A DNA stretch of 9,788 bases from a virus (taxonomy: Duplodnaviria; Heunggongvirae; Uroviricota; Caudoviricetes), in IMG/VR virus record IMGVR_UViG_2703718846_000007, positions 1 to 9,788 of that record, one strand, 5' to 3'. The position numbers were made by a program, and so were the translations under genes. Below the pieces are notes generated by a model, which saw only the letters and a list, made by a program, of their open reading frames with translations, was not told where the DNA came from and ran no database searches. Below, one piece after another: positions 1,851 through 8,482 of the stretch. Every line of letters starts with the position of its first letter. Position 1 is the stretch's first letter.

Positions 1851-2276
1851 TTAATGCACAGCCAGAGTGTTTCCTGCCGGGCCACCACGATTCATCTGAT
1901 CGAACAGAACGATCGCTGATGCAACGAAATCATCAATATCTTTCACCAGCCGTTCCTTCGTCTCTACCAACTCCCGAAAATAAGCGGAACTGTGGCTGCG
2001 CATTCGGGCCACCAGCGGAGGCGGCATCGCTTTTTCGATCGCTGGTAACAACGCCTGAATTTTTTTAACCGCATCAGGAGTGTCTTTCTCCACCCAGCGG
2101 AAAATTTTCTGGGTGTTACGGCCCAGGGCTTCCGGATGGCTGTCGTCGTACAATTCCGGGAACGTCATACCGAGTTCGAAATACGCTTTGGTAATTTTCG
2201 CAGCCGGAACTTTTTCACCGTTCAGATGTGCCCAGGCATTCATCGCCATGCGGATGTGTTCATGCTTGATTTTCAT
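1851..2276 (-). CDS. YdaT-family protein (CII-like regulator, historically annotated as toxin YdaT)
   Basis: 141-aa ORF immediately downstream of the Cro-like gene, with an ATGA start/stop overlap at 2273-2276. Size, position and the MKIKHEH... N-terminus fit the YdaS/YdaT arrangement of Rac-like prophages (recollection, not searched). Confidence 0.7.
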   Translation of the reverse strand: MKIKHEHIRMAMNAWAHLNGEKVPAAKITKAYFELGMTFPELYDDSHPEALGRNTQKIFRWVEKDTPDAVKKIQALLPAIEKAMPPPLVARMRSHSSAYFRELVETKERLVKDIDDFVASAIVLFDQMNRGGPAGNTLAVH

Positions 2277-2596: not shown

Positions 2597-3244
2597 ATGA
2601 TGGAAAGCCTTGGCATCAGGCTAAAGAGACTCAGAAAAGATAAGGGACTAACCCAAGTAGAACTGGGTAAGCTTTCAGGTGTAACTGGAGTTACTGTAGG
2701 GTACTGGGAGAAGGATCTAAACGAACCTGGTAGTAAAGCTCTAAGTAAATTAGCCCAGGCATTAGGAACTACTGAGTCCTACCTCCTGTATGGAGTATCG
2801 TCTCCTGAATCATCTTTTATGCAGATCAATCCAGGCTCTCAGATCCCCTATTTTTCTTGGGGTGACGCGATTTCTTTCCTAATTTTAGAAGGAGAGAAAG
2901 CTATGGGAAATGTCGATAGGATCACCACATTCTTTGATGTCGAGGAAGGTGATTTTGCCGTTTCAATGCCTGATGACACTATGCATAACCCAACTGGGTC
3001 GCCGAGCATCCCAGTTGGTGCCACAGTGATCCTAAGGCCTAGAGAAAGTTATAAAAATGGTAGCATCGTCGCTGTAATAGTTCCGGATCCGCTTACAAAT
3101 GAACCATCTATGACTATAAAAAAATTAGTTATTGATGGAAAGCTTGCGTACTTAAGCCCTCTTAATCCACGCTATCAATCATCTTTGCTTACACCAGAGT
3201 GTAAAATTGTTGCCGTAGCAAAAGGCGTACAGTTCAACTTATAG
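2597..3244 (+). CDS. cI: CI-like phage repressor with N-terminal HTH and C-terminal S24 (LexA-like) autopeptidase domain
   Basis: 215-aa ORF with GGGAG upstream. N-terminal HTH LTQVELGKLSGVTGVTVGYWE; C-terminal motifs AVSMPDD (catalytic Ser), TIKKLV (catalytic Lys) and LSPLNPRY align with lambda CI GNSM, TFKKLI and LQPLNPQY. Confidence 0.9.
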   Translation: MMESLGIRLKRLRKDKGLTQVELGKLSGVTGVTVGYWEKDLNEPGSKALSKLAQALGTTESYLLYGVSSPESSFMQINPGSQIPYFSWGDAISFLILEGEKAMGNVDRITTFFDVEEGDFAVSMPDDTMHNPTGSPSIPVGATVILRPRESYKNGSIVAVIVPDPLTNEPSMTIKKLVIDGKLAYLSPLNPRYQSSLLTPECKIVAVAKGVQFNL

Positions 3245-3266
3245 CCCCGTCAAACCCTTTAATCTG

Positions 3267-3292
3267 AGGTCGGCAATGCCGACCTTTTTTTT
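3267..3292 (+). terminator. Rho-independent terminator downstream of the repressor gene
   Basis: Hairpin GGTCGGC-AAT-GCCGACC at 3268-3284 followed by eight T at 3285-3292, 23 nt after the cI stop. Confidence 0.75.
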
Positions 3293-3312
3293 AAATTATT
3301 TTAGATTTTCGC

Positions 3313-3341
3313 TTGACTAAAAAACTAAATACTTTTAGATT
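3313..3341 (+). promoter_or_regulatory. pL-like sigma70 promoter for the early-left operon
   Basis: TTGACT (3313-3318), 17-bp spacer, TAGATT (3336-3341). Flanked by two copies of TTTTAGATTT (3299-3308 and 3333-3342), the same half-site motif seen in the cI/cro intergenic region. Confidence 0.5.
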
Positions 3342-3515: not shown

Positions 3516-3668
3516 ATGGATACTATCGATCTTGGCAACAACGAATCTCTGGTATACGGCGTGTTTCCAAACCAGGACGGTACGTTCACCGCGATGACGT
3601 ATACCAAAAGCAAAACGTTTAAAACCGAAGCTGGCGCGCGTCGCTGGTTAGCCAGAAATACTGACTGA
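3516..3668 (+). CDS. Small early protein (50 aa), YdaF-like / DUF1391-like
   Basis: ATG 3516 with GAGG 5 nt upstream; TGA stop at 3666-3668. The ORF-track frame extends upstream to 3438 but that start is less well supported. Family assignment is from memory only. Confidence 0.55.
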   Translation: MDTIDLGNNESLVYGVFPNQDGTFTAMTYTKSKTFKTEAGARRWLARNTD

Positions 3669-3679
3669 TGAGGTTAACG

Positions 3680-4315
3680 ATGGAATTTAAAGATTTACCG
3701 CTATCAATCCAGGAGATTGCAGCACACACACTACGTCAACGTCTGAACGAAGCTATGGCTGAATCTGCAACGAAAGAAACCATTGATAACATGGCTCGTA
3801 ATGTGCACGATGCGTTTACCGGATTGTATTTCTGTGCGTCTGTAAATAAACACGACCCAGAGAGTGTGGCAAAGAAAATTGCAGAAACGACAGTGCAAAA
3901 CATCAATACGAAACCAACCGAAGACGAAATTGACCAGCCTGCCAGTGAACAAAAGAAAGAAAAATCGCCATATGCGGGGAACATGTTTGTTTATGACAAA
4001 CTTATCCGAATTCGTGGCGAAATTCCGACTGAATACCTGGCAAAAATTCACCAGGCATTACTTAAAAATCTGGAAACGGAAGTATTTGATGGCAACACCA
4101 ACGGCTCCTTCGTGGTGTCAGCCCTCACAAAAGAGTGGGATACAGATAATCGCCGGAATGTTGCTACATGGTTATTCAGCAACAAAGCTGCTGCCCTGGA
4201 AGCTGCGGCCTGTATTTGCGACCTGCTAAGGACAGACCGCAAATACAACCTGGATGTGTATAGCTATATTTATGCTGAACACTATCCACTCTGGATTGAC
4301 TGGTTTAAAGGGTAA
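3680..4315 (+). CDS. Hypothetical early protein (211 aa), function unknown
   Basis: ORF-track frame 3668..4315. ATG 3680 has GAGG 6 nt upstream; the alternative ATG 3668 overlaps the preceding stop (TGATG). Soluble, non-repetitive protein; no motif recognised. Confidence 0.7.
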   Translation: MEFKDLPLSIQEIAAHTLRQRLNEAMAESATKETIDNMARNVHDAFTGLYFCASVNKHDPESVAKKIAETTVQNINTKPTEDEIDQPASEQKKEKSPYAGNMFVYDKLIRIRGEIPTEYLAKIHQALLKNLETEVFDGNTNGSFVVSALTKEWDTDNRRNVATWLFSNKAAALEAAACICDLLRTDRKYNLDVYSYIYAEHYPLWIDWFKG

Positions 4316-4412
4316 CACCTGCGGGACCGAGCCGACCAGCACCACGATTATTTTATCCTCCATTAAGGGGTGAATTAAAAATGGAGACCAACACGCTGCT
4401 ACGTGTGGTCGT

Positions 4413-4452
4413 GCGCCGGACACGGATAACCTTCCGGCATGCTCTTTAACAA
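4413..4452 (+). promoter_or_regulatory. Candidate processive-antitermination site: hairpin followed by an rrn-type boxA (TGCTCTTTAACAA)
   Basis: Exact 13-mer TGCTCTTTAACAA at 4440-4452 on the plus strand, preceded by hairpin GCCGGA-N12-TCCGGC at 4415-4438. Orientation matches pL-directed transcription. Confidence 0.4.
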
Positions 4453-4477
4453 TCTGGATATCCACAACAGCAATAAC

Positions 4478-4996
4478 CTACGGATTGCTGCTCAATGCTC
4501 TACCTATCTCTTCTTCAGATGGGGGCGGTATATAGTCATCATTGCGTTCAAATTTAAAGCGCGAATCACATTTCAGGCATTTAGAAATATGGAACTTATC
4601 ATGCTCACCAATTTCAACAGGTTGAAGTATTGCTATTACACCATGCTGATAGCAATTGGGACAGGCATAGTGAAAACATGTGTCTTCTTCGTCGAGGCTG
4701 TTCCTGAAAGCATAGACAAAATGCCCAAAACCAGTTTTGTGTATCGTATAGCATTCAAGTTTTCGATTACGCTCGTCAATTTCATGACATTTTTGCTTAA
4801 GCAAGAGTATTTCCTCGTACTGAAGCGCGAGCGTTTTCGCTAGCTCTGCGTTCTGTATTTGTAAGTCTGCCAGTTGGCGACGCATTTCGTAGACAGCCTT
4901 TTCACGTTCAGATTGGCTTTTTGCATCAAGTATTACCTGTAATAAATCAATCGAGACTTTAATTGCCGTTATTGATGAAGTTATTCCAGATAGCAT
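4478..4996 (-). CDS. Hypothetical coiled-coil plus zinc-ribbon protein (172 aa) on an antisense-oriented AT-rich insert
   Basis: ORF-track frame 4478..5113, trimmed to ATG 4994-4996 because a perfect TATAAT lies about 32 nt upstream. N-terminal heptad-like region RRQLADLQIQNAELAKTLALQYEEILLLKQK; C-terminal CPNC...CLKC cysteine pairs. GC is visibly lower than in the flanks. Confidence 0.65.
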   Translation of the reverse strand: MLSGITSSITAIKVSIDLLQVILDAKSQSEREKAVYEMRRQLADLQIQNAELAKTLALQYEEILLLKQKCHEIDERNRKLECYTIHKTGFGHFVYAFRNSLDEEDTCFHYACPNCYQHGVIAILQPVEIGEHDKFHISKCLKCDSRFKFERNDDYIPPPSEEEIGRALSSNP

Positions 4997-5007
4997 TCTT
5001 AACTCTC

Positions 5008-5060
5008 TGTGTTGTTGGGGTATCCGGATTATACAAATTTCTTGTTGTTGGGGAACAACA
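5008..5060 (-). promoter_or_regulatory. Promoter and candidate operators for the antisense gene
   Basis: Minus-strand TATAAT (plus 5028-5033). Two copies of TGTTGTTGGGG (plus 5010-5020 and 5043-5053); the second forms a perfect palindrome TGTTGTT-GGGG-AACAACA (5043-5060) over the -35 region. Confidence 0.5.
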
Positions 5061-5313
5061 GGAACCACCTCGCCTGATGTGGTTAAAAGCAGGCACACAA
5101 CACGAAAGCGCACGGCGAAGGTTTCTTTTCCTTAGAAGGCTTGTCGTTAGATTTCTTCGACCGTGCGCTTCCGGTTGTGGCAATCCGCGAAATGGCGCGG
5201 CGGTAAGTATGGCGGGGTTATCCTTACCCCCACTGGTAGCACCGGGTTGTCAGGTTGACCATACGCTTAAGTGACAACCCCGCTACAACACTCCATGTTG
5301 AGTATTGACCTTT

Positions 5314-5354
5314 GGCGGCATCAGTTTAATTGCTGGCTGATGTCCGCCCTTTTT
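5314..5354 (+). terminator. Rho-independent terminator (plus strand)
   Basis: Stem GGCGGCATCAG (5314-5324), 12-nt loop, stem CTGATGTCCGCC (5337-5348), then CTTTTT (5349-5354). Confidence 0.6.
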
Positions 5355-5550
5355 AAAGTGAATTTTGTGATGTGGTGAATGCGGCTAAGCGCACGCGGAA
5401 CAGTTAAAAGACCATTTGTTCTCCGTATCAATACTTATGGGTAGGTACTTGCAGGCGGGTCCCTGTATTCCGGCGTTAATTGTTAACTGGTTAACGTCAC
5501 CTGGAGGCACCAGGCACCGCATCACAAAATTCATTGTTGAGGACGCGATA

Positions 5551-5739
5551 ATGGAAACGTTATTACTCAATTCCACTACGCCTGAGACTCGTTTTGAAAT
5601 TGGCGTTATCACTGGCGATAAAAACTTTATTGAAGATGCCATTAATCAGATAAAGCATGAGCCAGATTCATCAAATGAGATATGCATTGCTTCAATGCTG
5701 GCCCGTTTACGCCCGACGCAAAAAGGATGCTGGCAATGA
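5551..5739 (+). CDS. Hypothetical small protein (62 aa)
   Basis: ATG 5551 with GAGGA 7 nt upstream; stop TGA 5737-5739 overlaps the next start. The ORF-track frame begins at 5416 but upstream in-frame starts lack a Shine-Dalgarno and use rare codons. Confidence 0.45.
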   Translation: METLLLNSTTPETRFEIGVITGDKNFIEDAINQIKHEPDSSNEICIASMLARLRPTQKGCWQ

Positions 5740-5939
5740 ATACCACATTTGCACTTGTTCTGACGGTTTTTCTTGTTTCCGGTGAACCAGTTGACATGGT
5801 TATTGGCGTATACAGCTCAATGAAAGAATGCATGGCTGCCGCAGATGAACAGAAAATTCCCGGTAACTGTTATCCGGTCGATAAAGTTATTCACCAGGAT
5901 AATAACGAAATCCCGGCAGGACTTAAAACAGCGCCGTAA
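5736..5939 (+). CDS. Hypothetical small protein (67 aa) with an N-terminal hydrophobic segment
   Basis: ATG 5736 overlaps the upstream stop (ATGA), with AAGGA 8 nt upstream. N-terminus MNTTFALVLTVFLVSG looks like a signal peptide or transmembrane helix. The ORF-track frame starts at 5682. Confidence 0.5.
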   Translation: MNTTFALVLTVFLVSGEPVDMVIGVYSSMKECMAAADEQKIPGNCYPVDKVIHQDNNEIPAGLKTAP

Positions 5940-6016: not shown

Positions 6017-8482
6017 ATGAGCACTGATAAAGAAGAATTTGCATTATATTGTGAAGCAAAAAATGACAAAGTCAGAAAACGCCTTGGAATTAAAGGTGGT
6101 TTTTACTGGACTACAGCAAAAAAATTATCTGTTGCCATCTCCCGCTGCATTACCGCAATGGATGACAACGATTATGATGAAGACGACTTTAAAAAACCCG
6201 TCCGCGTCCATTTACCCGTTGTGAATGACCTTCCACCTGAAGGCGTGTTTGATACTGAATTCTGTAACCGTTACGAAAAAGGCGGGGAAGATGGCATCAC
6301 AATGGTATTTATCGCGCCCTCACCCTCTGCGCAGGACAAACCAGCCAACACTGACAATACCAACGTCAACGGCGAAGACATGACTGAGATTGAGGAGAAC
6401 ATGCTCCTGCCGGTTTCAGGTCAGATTCTGCCTGTTCGATGGCTGGCACAGCACGGCAGCGAAAAACCGATCACACACGTTTCGCGGGACGAACTGCGCG
6501 CATTACATAACGCACAGGATGAAAAACTTCCCGCCGTTACCGCGCTGGCTATCTCAAATAAAGCAGCGCAACTCGAACCGCTGGAGATTCGCGATCTCCA
6601 CAAACTGGTGCGAGACACTGACAAAGTTTTCCCCGCCCCCGTAAATTCGGACCTGGGACTGATAACTTCTTTTATCGAAGCATACCTGGACGCCGACTAC
6701 ACCGATCGCGGTCTGCTGACAAAAGAGTGGATGAAAGGAAATCGTGTTTCGCGTATCACCCGTACGGCTTCCGGTGCAAATGCCGGTGGCGGGAACAAAA
6801 CCGATCGCAATCCGAATTTAGTACACACCTTCGATACGCTGGATGTGGAGACTGCAGCAGCCACACTTCCGATGGATTTTAATATTTATGAAATTCCGGG
6901 TAGCGTTTATCGTCGCGCAAAAGAAATCGTCCTGAAAAGAGAAAGTCCGTTCAAAGAATGGTCCGCAGCACTTCGCGCAACCCCGGGTATTCTGGATTAT
7001 TCCCGCGCCGCTATTTTTGCACTTATCCGGAGCGCTCACCCTGAGTTTTATCACTACCCGGGACGCCTTCAGGGGTATATCAACGCCCACTTAACGGAGA
7101 CTGATCACGAGAACCCCAGCAAGGAAACTCTCACTGCTGCACGACATACACCGGAAAAAGATATCCTGGAAGAAGTTAACCGCGAACTGGCTGCTGAACG
7201 CGAAACAGAAGAAGAAAAAAATAATGAGGAAAAATCACAACCGTCTGACGCAATGGCAGATGAACAGGCAACGGCCGAAGCAATGGAGCCGGATACAACT
7301 GAACATCACCAGGACACGCAATCGCTGGATACTCAGGAACAGGTAGATCCAGTTAAACAGGTAAAAGTTACCGCTGACGAAGTAAACAAAATTATGCAGG
7401 CAGCCAATATCAACCAGCCTGATGCCGACAAAATACTGGCAGTCCATCGCGGTGAGTTCGTTGACGGAATTAGCGACCCGAATGATCCGAAATGGGTTAA
7501 GGGGATTGAAACCCGCGATTCTGTGAACCAGAACCTGCCCGAATCGGAACAAAACGACCAGAAAGCGGAACAGAACAGCCCAAATACGTTACAAAACGAG
7601 CCAGAAACGAAACAGCCTGAACCAGAAGAGCAACAAGAACCGGAAAAAGTCTGCACCGCCTGCGGTCAGAGCGGTGGCGGCAACTGCCCTGATTGTGGCG
7701 CGGTGATGGGCGACGCAACATACCAGGAAACATTCGATGAAGAGAATCAGGCTGAAACTCAGGAAAATGATCCGGAGGAAATGGAAGGCGCTGAACATCC
7801 GAACAATGAGAATGCTGGTAACGATCAGCATCACACCAGCGATAGTAAAACTGGCGAGGCGGCAGATCCCTTAATTACGGTGAACAGTCATCACATTATC
7901 ACATCCACCAGCAGGGTATGGCACCATCTGATGATCGACCTTGAAACGATGGGAATTAACAGCAATGCGCCCATCGTAGTTATTGCTGCAGTGTTTTTCG
8001 ATCCGCAGACCGGGGAAATCGGACCGATATTTTATGTTGTCATCAGTCTGGTTGACGCAATGGACAAAGGTGCTACTCCCGATGGTGACGTAATCGAATG
8101 GTGGCTGGCGCAGTCCAGCGAGGCCAGATCTGCAATATTGGTAAATCAAATTCCGTTAGATGATGCACTATTGCAATTGCGGGAATTTATCGACGAAAAC
8201 TCCGGTGAATTTTTTGTTCGGGTCTGGGGAAATGGAGCCAGCTTCGACAACGTGATTTTACGCCGTTCATATGAACGGCAGGGTATCCCCTGCCCGTGGC
8301 GTTACTGCAACGATCGCGATGTGCGCACAATCGTTGATCTGGGAAAAGCCATAGACTTCGATGCCAGAACAGCTATTCCGTTCGAAGGCGTACGCCATAA
8401 TGCACTGGATGATGCCCGCCACCAGGCAAAACAAGTTTCAGCTATCTGGCAAAAACTGATCCCGAGTCAGGTTGATTTTTAA
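6017..8482 (+). CDS. Large prophage exonuclease (821 aa): RecE/exodeoxyribonuclease VIII-like N-terminal region, acidic low-complexity linker, CxxC-x9-CxxC zinc ribbon, C-terminal DEDDh-type 3'-5' exonuclease domain
   Basis: ATG 6017 with GAGG 7 nt upstream. C-terminal about 196 aa (nt 7892-8479) carry DEDDh motifs MIDLET, GNGASFD and HNALDD. Zinc ribbon CTACGQSGGGNCPDCG near nt 7651-7700. N-terminal segments (NTNVNGEDMTEIEENMLLP..., DYTDRGLLTKEWMKGNRVS...) resemble enterobacterial exonuclease VIII proteins as I recall them. Confidence 0.85.
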   Translation: MSTDKEEFALYCEAKNDKVRKRLGIKGGFYWTTAKKLSVAISRCITAMDDNDYDEDDFKKPVRVHLPVVNDLPPEGVFDTEFCNRYEKGGEDGITMVFIAPSPSAQDKPANTDNTNVNGEDMTEIEENMLLPVSGQILPVRWLAQHGSEKPITHVSRDELRALHNAQDEKLPAVTALAISNKAAQLEPLEIRDLHKLVRDTDKVFPAPVNSDLGLITSFIEAYLDADYTDRGLLTKEWMKGNRVSRITRTASGANAGGGNKTDRNPNLVHTFDTLDVETAAATLPMDFNIYEIPGSVYRRAKEIVLKRESPFKEWSAALRATPGILDYSRAAIFALIRSAHPEFYHYPGRLQGYINAHLTETDHENPSKETLTAARHTPEKDILEEVNRELAAERETEEEKNNEEKSQPSDAMADEQATAEAMEPDTTEHHQDTQSLDTQEQVDPVKQVKVTADEVNKIMQAANINQPDADKILAVHRGEFVDGISDPNDPKWVKGIETRDSVNQNLPESEQNDQKAEQNSPNTLQNEPETKQPEPEEQQEPEKVCTACGQSGGGNCPDCGAVMGDATYQETFDEENQAETQENDPEEMEGAEHPNNENAGNDQHHTSDSKTGEAADPLITVNSHHIITSTSRVWHHLMIDLETMGINSNAPIVVIAAVFFDPQTGEIGPIFYVVISLVDAMDKGATPDGDVIEWWLAQSSEARSAILVNQIPLDDALLQLREFIDENSGEFFVRVWGNGASFDNVILRRSYERQGIPCPWRYCNDRDVRTIVDLGKAIDFDARTAIPFEGVRHNALDDARHQAKQVSAIWQKLIPSQVDF

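Follow-up and report, generated by a model that had tools for sequence, protein, structure and literature searches.

Results

Gene A and its lost partner at a polymorphic cassette site

Gene A, an open reading frame (ORF) for a 211-residue protein in a 9,788-nucleotide stretch of DNA from a member of the Caudoviricetes (IMG/VR virus record IMGVR_UViG_2703718846_000007; the whole stretch is hereafter called the window), is, by comparison with related prophages, the orphan half of a two-gene cassette, the other half of which is the convergent gene B (phrog_4274). On the same comparison the ydfA-dicF interval that carries gene A is a polymorphic two-gene cassette site, recombining within the ydfA-dicF-dicB early operon. 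As a tentative reading, to which we give a probability of roughly one in three, we propose that A and B form a cognate pair in which the C-terminal domain (C-domain) of A binds the product of B, and that A is an early neutraliser of B.

The site was delimited by blastn, using the B-intact locus L098 as the reference for cassette comparison. Among the E. coli cassette types the DNA homology ends at about codon 50-69 of gene A and resumes exactly at the Shine-Dalgarno (SD) sequence and start of the small ORF, from which it runs on through DicF and dicB; the type-specific, unrelated stretch of 300-690 bp in between holds all of B together with the C-terminal domain of A. The conserved N-terminal part, designated the N-module, runs into at least five alternative and unrelated C-termini, none of which is a Pfam family, and the small ORF changes alongside. 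Other N-module types (L161, L162 and L163/L176) carry their own convergent ORF, encoding, respectively, a zinc ribbon of 84 aa and proteins of 105 and 68 aa; the variant in phage Evi is followed by an unrelated convergent ORF of 77 aa, and O104:H4 and ATCC 25922 carry another cassette type. The genes for all these N-module proteins lie in the same early-left operons, those of phage Evi and of Shiga toxin (Stx) 2a phages among them. Of 5,426 complete E. coli genomes, 1,123 have the conserved right flank of the site, and about 10% of complete genomes have gene A, which is strain-variable. Literature searches on Ybl81, phrog_2151 and the two EDL933 accessions returned nothing, those on DUF1391 and lambdoid hot spots returned nothing relevant, and no description of the cassette structure was found in any of them.

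Gene B is a convergent gene of 64-73 aa with no assigned function, and in TUM9812 and EDL933 (WP_001133037.1 in the latter) a 69-aa B on the opposite strand abuts the stop codon of gene A. Out of the 92 C-domain loci having downstream sequence, B abuts or overlaps the 3′ end of A with an ATG start in 79 and is present with an altered start in 8 more; the loci without B are the window, three that are closely related to it and one pseudogene locus. About 568 complete E. coli genomes, mostly O157:H7 and other Shiga toxin-producing E. coli (STEC) and including EDL933, carry both the C-domain type of A and B. The ratio of nonsynonymous to synonymous substitution rates (dN/dS) of gene B lies between 0.06 and 0.3, and this purifying selection indicates that B is a real gene. 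When three further divergent B clusters were sampled, all three adjoined a C-domain gene.

The pairing extends to Salmonella, the only place outside the E. coli family where the C-domain was found (proteins of 206-323 aa). Between the two genera the C-domains are 33-41% and the B products 47-58% identical, and the N-terminal domains are unrelated. The Salmonella B homologues (64-69 aa) are again convergent, overlapping the 3′ end of A by 11-53 nt. The Salmonella C-domain genes always follow cox directly in int-C-cox elements (P2-type C/Cox switch), with lambdoid early genes next. In L006, L007 and L092-L095 a DicA-like helix-turn-helix (HTH) of the HTH_3 family lies between an N-terminal domain of their own and the C-domain (286-323 aa in total), and sister forms without the HTH are 217-220 aa long; both forms stand directly after cox. 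As a side observation, the hybrid Salmonella elements L003, L006, L009 and L090-L095 combine the P2-type int-C-cox switch with lambdoid early genes for an Rv2179c-like exonuclease, Exonuc_VIII/RecE, DUF1627 and Ead/Ea22, and also hold Ash and P4-type 'Derepression' genes.

Loss of gene B in the window

Compared with L098, gene B in the window has suffered a 163-bp frameshifting internal deletion with the junction at 4349/4350 (positions 3179-3341 of L098 are missing), leaving the SD and start region, ATGGAGGATAAAAT, at 4350-4363 and the last 15 or so codons at 4305-4349. A tblastn search for B in the window and in L001, L011 and L088 gave no match. This B-deleted arrangement occurs in 3 of the 5,426 complete genomes. 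The closest described proteins are those of phrog_2151 ('Ybl81'; e.g. WP_000394548.1 of EDL933), which align over the full length with 68-99% identity and likewise come next after ydfA in the ydfA-dicF-dicB operon; nearly all of their loci keep B, whereas the window does not.

To the right of the conserved flank the window carries an insertion relative to the B-intact loci, with an antisense ORF matching phrog_1244 (E 1e-31 over residues 42-195) that is annotated as hypothetical in strain C5. This ORF was considered as a B-type gene and rejected, the similarity being limited to 9 residues. It shows a weak match to the zinc-binding ECs_2282 family; it opposes the pL operon and may thus be a moron with its own promoter, and in L023 a 35%-identical copy is found together with an intact B. 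The coordinates of all features are collected in Table 1.

Table 1. Features of the cassette site and the surrounding immunity and early region, in window coordinates
Feature	Position	Strand	Basis
Gene A, phrog_2151 ('Ybl81') protein, 211 aa	3680..4315	+	ORF scan, PHROGs match, allele comparison
N-module of A, residues 1-58, MEFKDLP..IQ.IAA...DNM.RNVRDAF.GLY; left flank of cassette site	3680..3853	+	PHROGs, blastn, dN/dS
Charged linker of A, residues 59-97, probably disordered	3854..3970	+	pLDDT, dN/dS, indels
C-domain of A, residues 98-208, orphan alpha/beta	3971..4303	+	AF2, alignment, dN/dS
Remnant of gene B (phrog_4274)	4305..4363	-	Alignment with TUM9812 and C5; blastn against L098
Conserved right flank of cassette site, 5′ of B on the minus strand	4350..4439	.	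blastn, all E. coli types
645-bp insertion relative to B-intact loci	4440..5084	-	blastn boundaries
Antisense ORF in insertion, coiled coil plus CxxC...CxxC ribbon, phrog_1244	4478-4996 (to 5113 at most)	-	PHROGs
Replication-protein gene, YdaT-family gene and cro	left of the CI-like gene, in that order	-	
CI-like repressor gene, HTH_3 and Peptidase_S24 domains	2597-3244	+	Pfam
Intrinsic terminator (3266-3286) after the cI-like gene; 9-bp G+C-rich stem, then T run	3266..3295	+	
Two operator-like palindromes, bracketing/overlapping the pL-like promoter	3293-3307 and 3324-3339	.	Repeat of cro-cI palindromes
pL-like sigma-70 promoter, TTGACT-17-TAGATT, 9/12 consensus matches	3313..3341	+	Consensus scan
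ydfA-like gene, DUF1391, 50 aa, first in operon	3516..3668	+	PF07151 E 1e-28; phrog_751
Conserved structured leader 5′ of the DicF-like RNA	~5095-5300	+	Salmonella comparison, RNAalifold
DicF-like small RNA and terminator, same operon, downstream of gene A	5303-5349	+	Rfam scan; terminator scan
dicB-like cell-division inhibitor gene	5551..5739	+	dicB by annotation in the strain C5 locus (99.4% identical)
ydfD (DUF1482)	5736-5939	+	Pfam
Exonuclease gene, then xis and int	6017-8482	+	Pfam Exonuc_VIII, Rv2179c-like

AF2, AlphaFold2; pLDDT, predicted local distance difference test.

Reading frame and domain architecture of gene A

Gene A is a real gene, more than a chance reading frame. The sequence-only reading had described a well-formed ORF with a good ribosome-binding site, and indeed the frame is uninterrupted on the plus strand from 3668 to 4315, with a GAGG at 3670-3673 placed 6 nt ahead of the ATG at 3680. 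This ATG must be the correct start, because the alleles that lie behind ydfC instead of ydfA do not have the upstream MRLT codons and yet all begin with MEFKDLP. The match to the phrog_2151 profile has an E value of 6.9e-112 and covers residues 1-208 against positions 1-212 of 212. The identical protein is found on 79 public contigs, always annotated as hypothetical; its relatives form about 150 clusters, nearly all from Escherichia, and a few are named Ybl81. The protein has an isoelectric point (pI) of 5.3 (5.6 for the C-domain) and a net charge of -7 over 211 residues, and is predicted to be soluble and cytoplasmic; a membrane exclusion protein was considered and rejected, as no hydrophobic segment is present. 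About 5 of 94 gene A copies (L015, L081, L082, L086 and L089) are frame-shifted or truncated, being occasional decay products of the cassette, and in L086 the altered 3′ end of gene A lets B read through to 116 aa.

The protein divides into an N-module, a linker and a C-domain. Four families, phrog_1363, 9419, 6937 and 33007, match gene A over residues 1-50 to 1-90 only. The AF2 model of the full-length protein was poor (pLDDT 52) and unusable; helices in the N-module were predicted in it at low confidence, and the linker, with a pLDDT of 29-34, has a grand average of hydropathy of -1.45 and varies by indels among the alleles. Residues 92-211 modelled separately, on an alignment that took in the 33-40%-identical Salmonella relatives, gave a pLDDT of 74 (79-92 in the core) and a predicted template-modelling score of 0.69, with the topology beta-beta-alpha-beta-beta-alpha-beta. 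The invariant motifs of this domain, FDGxxNG and WxFS...AxxE, hold as alignment columns against the same Salmonella relatives.

Pairwise comparison with diverged alleles gave dN/dS values of 0.12-0.38 for the C-domain (residues 96-208), about 1 (0.5-1.2) for the linker (residues 59-95) and 0.2-0.95 for the N-part (residues 1-58), where the value of 0.2 comes from saturated synonymous sites; the C-domain is thus under purifying selection and the linker is near-neutral. In the comparison with L011, saturation is reached in the N-part (dS 2.5) and the C-part is near-identical (dS 0.013), whereas against L013 the reverse was found, with an identical N-part and a differing C-part. This pattern indicates that intragenic recombination shuffles the N- and C-parts of gene A.

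Homology and fold searches

Searches with gene A, the C-domain alignment and the relatives against Pfam, NCBIfam and PADLOC gave nothing above noise, and neither single-sequence nor profile searches of PDB sequences with gene A gave a match, in line with the earlier remark that no motif could be recognised. When 1.84 billion representative proteins were searched with a profile, 51 hits were returned, about 40 of them matching the first 55 or so residues only. Among 50,697 isolated-phage records the C-domain was not found, the N-module alone being present in phage Evi and in Stx phages, and pattern scans of a one-genome-per-species set found neither. A possible homology to YdfC was rejected (BLASTP E 1.8). 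Comparison of the fold with PDB and BFVD structures yielded no informative match: the C-domain may share its topology with the SUI1/eIF1 (YciH) and ACT-type two-layer alpha/beta sandwiches, and its fold matches are generic. The remote-homology and structure-prediction searches proposed with the sequence-only reading, in which a structural or housekeeping family would have spoken against an early accessory function, thus gave no such family and left the C-domain as an orphan alpha/beta fold.

Promoter and position of gene A in the early operon

The window comes from a lambdoid prophage of the Qin/Rac type and makes up its immunity and early-left region. The pL-like promoter assumed in the sequence-only reading was identified as TTGACT-17-TAGATT behind the terminator of the cI-like gene, together with operators in common with the cro-cI region. 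Palindromes of the TCTAA-N-TTTAGA type recur at 2516-2531 and 2562-2577 in the cro-cI intergenic region, and an exact 16-mer is common, in inverted orientation, to this and to the pL-like operator region. The four palindromes, in two pairs (2516-2577 and 3293-3339), likely make up the immunity specificity of the S24 repressor.

Gene A starts about 340 nt 3′ of the promoter, behind ydfA only, the stop codon of which lies 11 nt ahead of the gene A ATG; it is thus the first substantial gene of the operon, as had been stated, but the second in order. In strain C5 and in EDL933 the annotation of the ydfA-like gene is likewise DUF1391 family. Since no terminator-like site was found between the promoter (3341) and the end of gene A (4315), transcription is predicted to reach gene A without antitermination. 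The sequence features support the prediction that gene A is a dispensable immediate-early gene on a repressor-controlled pL-like promoter, and the early accessory function first suggested for it agrees with this promoter, with its dispensability and strain variability and with the recombining cassette site.

Downstream, the DicF-like match (37.9 bits, E 5e-6) lies under the Rfam cut-off of 48, and is apparently a divergent DicF allele missed by gathering thresholds; it is followed at 5351-5570 by an STnc100-like match (33.9 bits), the same pair being present in L098. Ahead of it lies a noncoding leader of about 200 nt, over which the E. coli and Salmonella loci share 77-87% identity, as against 35-58% for the flanking proteins (loci compared: window 5095-5300, L098 3472-3668, L006 7150-7400, L009, L092 and L094). 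RNAalifold gave a stem of about 25 bp with three compensatory pairs, the G-U pairs favouring the plus strand, and no Rfam family matched this leader. This stretch is possibly a site of RNase III-type processing, or it may serve the pL transcript as a structured leader.

Among the outer genes, the 6017-8482 product (821 aa) is a fusion of a RecE N-terminal region (Exonuc_VIII) and a C-terminal Rv2179c-like DEDD 3′-5′ exonuclease, the two domains being separated by a long acidic low-complexity stretch with CxxC...CxxC; in the Salmonella loci they are two genes. A 'toxin YdaT family' protein (1851-2276, minus strand) follows cro at the position of lambda cII, an arrangement likewise annotated in C5, TUM9812, EDL933 and O104:H4.

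Discussion

Proposed cognate pairing of A and B

The proposed sequence of events is as follows. When the CI-like repressor leaves the pL-like promoter, A would be made at once; its N-module would be the front end common to proteins of this operon and its C-domain the working end, with a single specific binding target, the product (64-73 aa) of the convergent B. In such a pair, of the defence/self-immunity or toxin/antidote type, A would be expressed early and neutralise B, the expression of which would also be opposed by convergent transcription from pL. Even the orphan A of the window could neutralise B-type proteins of other prophages, that is, act in counter-defence. Binding of A to B, the identity of the harmful partner and the role in phage-phage conflict are what we infer from the genomic pattern described above. 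A cognate pair acting through direct binding is the most economical explanation for the co-variation of the C-domain and B, for their staying paired at deep divergence and for the purifying selection on each. That A rather than B should be the neutraliser is favoured by four points: A is under the lytic promoter; convergent pL transcription would oppose B; many Salmonella A proteins have a DicA-like HTH ahead of the C-domain, in the layout of a DNA-binding antidote; and the loss of B with retention of A is harmless on that model.

Several observations weigh against the cognate pair. The co-variation of A and B could come from mere linkage between two recombination flanks, and the Salmonella loci, since they have the right-hand flank in common with E. 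coli, represent the same site and not an independent association of A with B. In the lineage of the window A is intact without B, so that any dependence of A on B is not obligate. A promoter for B was looked for over about 350 nt and not found, and searches gave no likeness of A or B to known toxin, antitoxin, defence or anti-defence proteins. A convergent orientation is also unusual for protein toxin-antitoxin (TA) pairs. A type II TA system is a co-transcribed adjacent pair with a TA domain, but A and B are convergent and searches of Pfam, NCBIfam and PADLOC found no TA domain in either, the HTH of the Salmonella A variants being the sole antitoxin- or repressor-like feature.

Alternative functions of gene A

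It is possible, if rather unlikely, that A works by itself in host takeover or anti-defence, binding early in infection to some host protein or to a defence system unrelated to B, with B as a merely linked moron. The promoter-proximal early position, the host-directed neighbours (DicF-like RNA, dicB and ydfD), the accessory and strain-variable nature of the gene, its integrity where B is deleted and the soluble, cytoplasmic product without a membrane segment all agree with such a role. Gene A indeed resembles lambda Ral, Gam and Kil in its early-left location, dispensability and predicted expression on derepression; it differs from them in being larger and of two domains, and neither sequence searches (Pfam, PHROGs, NCBIfam) nor fold comparison showed a relation to them. 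The sequence-only reading had offered gene A as an anti-restriction candidate, and this proposal found no support, as no similarity to Ral, Ocr, ArdA, Gam or a PDB/BFVD structure was found and the protein, only mildly acidic at pI 5.3, is not a DNA mimic by charge; more broadly, it resembles no known anti-restriction or anti-defence protein or structure. Its motifs were also absent from the supplements of two accessory-gene screens. A stand-alone function moreover leaves unexplained the pairing of C-domain and B at 33-41% identity and the type-specific small ORFs. The usual presence of a convergent partner, deleted here, points to a cognate-pair function over a stand-alone host-takeover protein.

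The cognate pair can be extended to a wider proposal, which we consider unlikely as a whole: that the ydfA-dicF interval and the Salmonella post-cox site make up an undescribed polymorphic conflict system, in which pL-driven A, with a common N-terminal adaptor and swappable C-domains, would neutralise a prophage exclusion or abortive-infection factor B, B would be silenced by convergent transcription, and orphan A would serve in counter-defence against lysogens with a matching B.

The roles might instead be exchanged, A being a harmful, growth-arresting early effector (in a role like that of Kil or DicB) and B a cassette-specific inhibitor or regulator that guards the lysogen from leaky pL. 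The layout of conserved N-terminus, variable C-terminus and co-varying small neighbour is that of polymorphic effectors, the operon already encodes growth inhibitors, and loss of B would be tolerable while pL is repressed. This exchange is nevertheless quite improbable: no toxin-like domain or catalytic motif was found in A and its fold matches are generic, the low number of frame-shifted copies noted above gives no sign of counter-selection, a few complete genomes keep A intact without B, and the HTH-bearing Salmonella variants resemble antidotes more than toxins. Equally doubtful is a regulator of the lysis-lysogeny decision or of early genes, with a C-domain of the ACT or ArgR-C type that serves for oligomerisation or ligand binding; such a regulator would act on DNA directly where an HTH is present and otherwise via a partner.

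Comparison with known systems

Polymorphic effector-immunity cassettes such as CdiA-CT/CdiI, Rhs and the colicins/pyocins combine a conserved N-terminus, a variable C-terminal domain and a small gene that changes with it, and recombine at their flanks. The gene A locus is like them in modular layout and flank exchange, and unlike them in that no delivery or toxin domain is present, the small gene is convergent instead of co-directional and the promoter is a phage early promoter. Exclusion that spares the element itself is found in the sieB-esc system of P22 and lambda, where esc is an internal product of sieB. In the early region of prophages, BstA provides exclusion and the DNA element aba spares the phage's own lytic growth (PMC8585504). 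The concept of A and B under the cognate-pair proposal is alike, but there is no relation in sequence or fold to either system; here two convergent proteins would be involved, and the defence function of B is hypothetical.

Significance

Taken by itself the gene A protein is an ordinary hypothetical prophage gene product, and it is the cassette structure that is directly testable. Should the pairs not be cognate, the anti-restriction guess is set aside, and a recombination hot spot is defined together with two orphan families and the boundaries of their domains. If the pairs are cognate, the locus, with gene A in about one-tenth of complete E. coli genomes (O157:H7 EDL933 and many STEC among them) and the cassette site in about one-fifth, would provide a compact, naturally occurring library of specific protein-protein antagonists, sitting in the earliest-transcribed part of Stx-associated and cryptic prophages, and would bear on competition between prophages, on the outcome of prophage induction in enterohaemorrhagic E. 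coli and on the mining of anti-defence genes.
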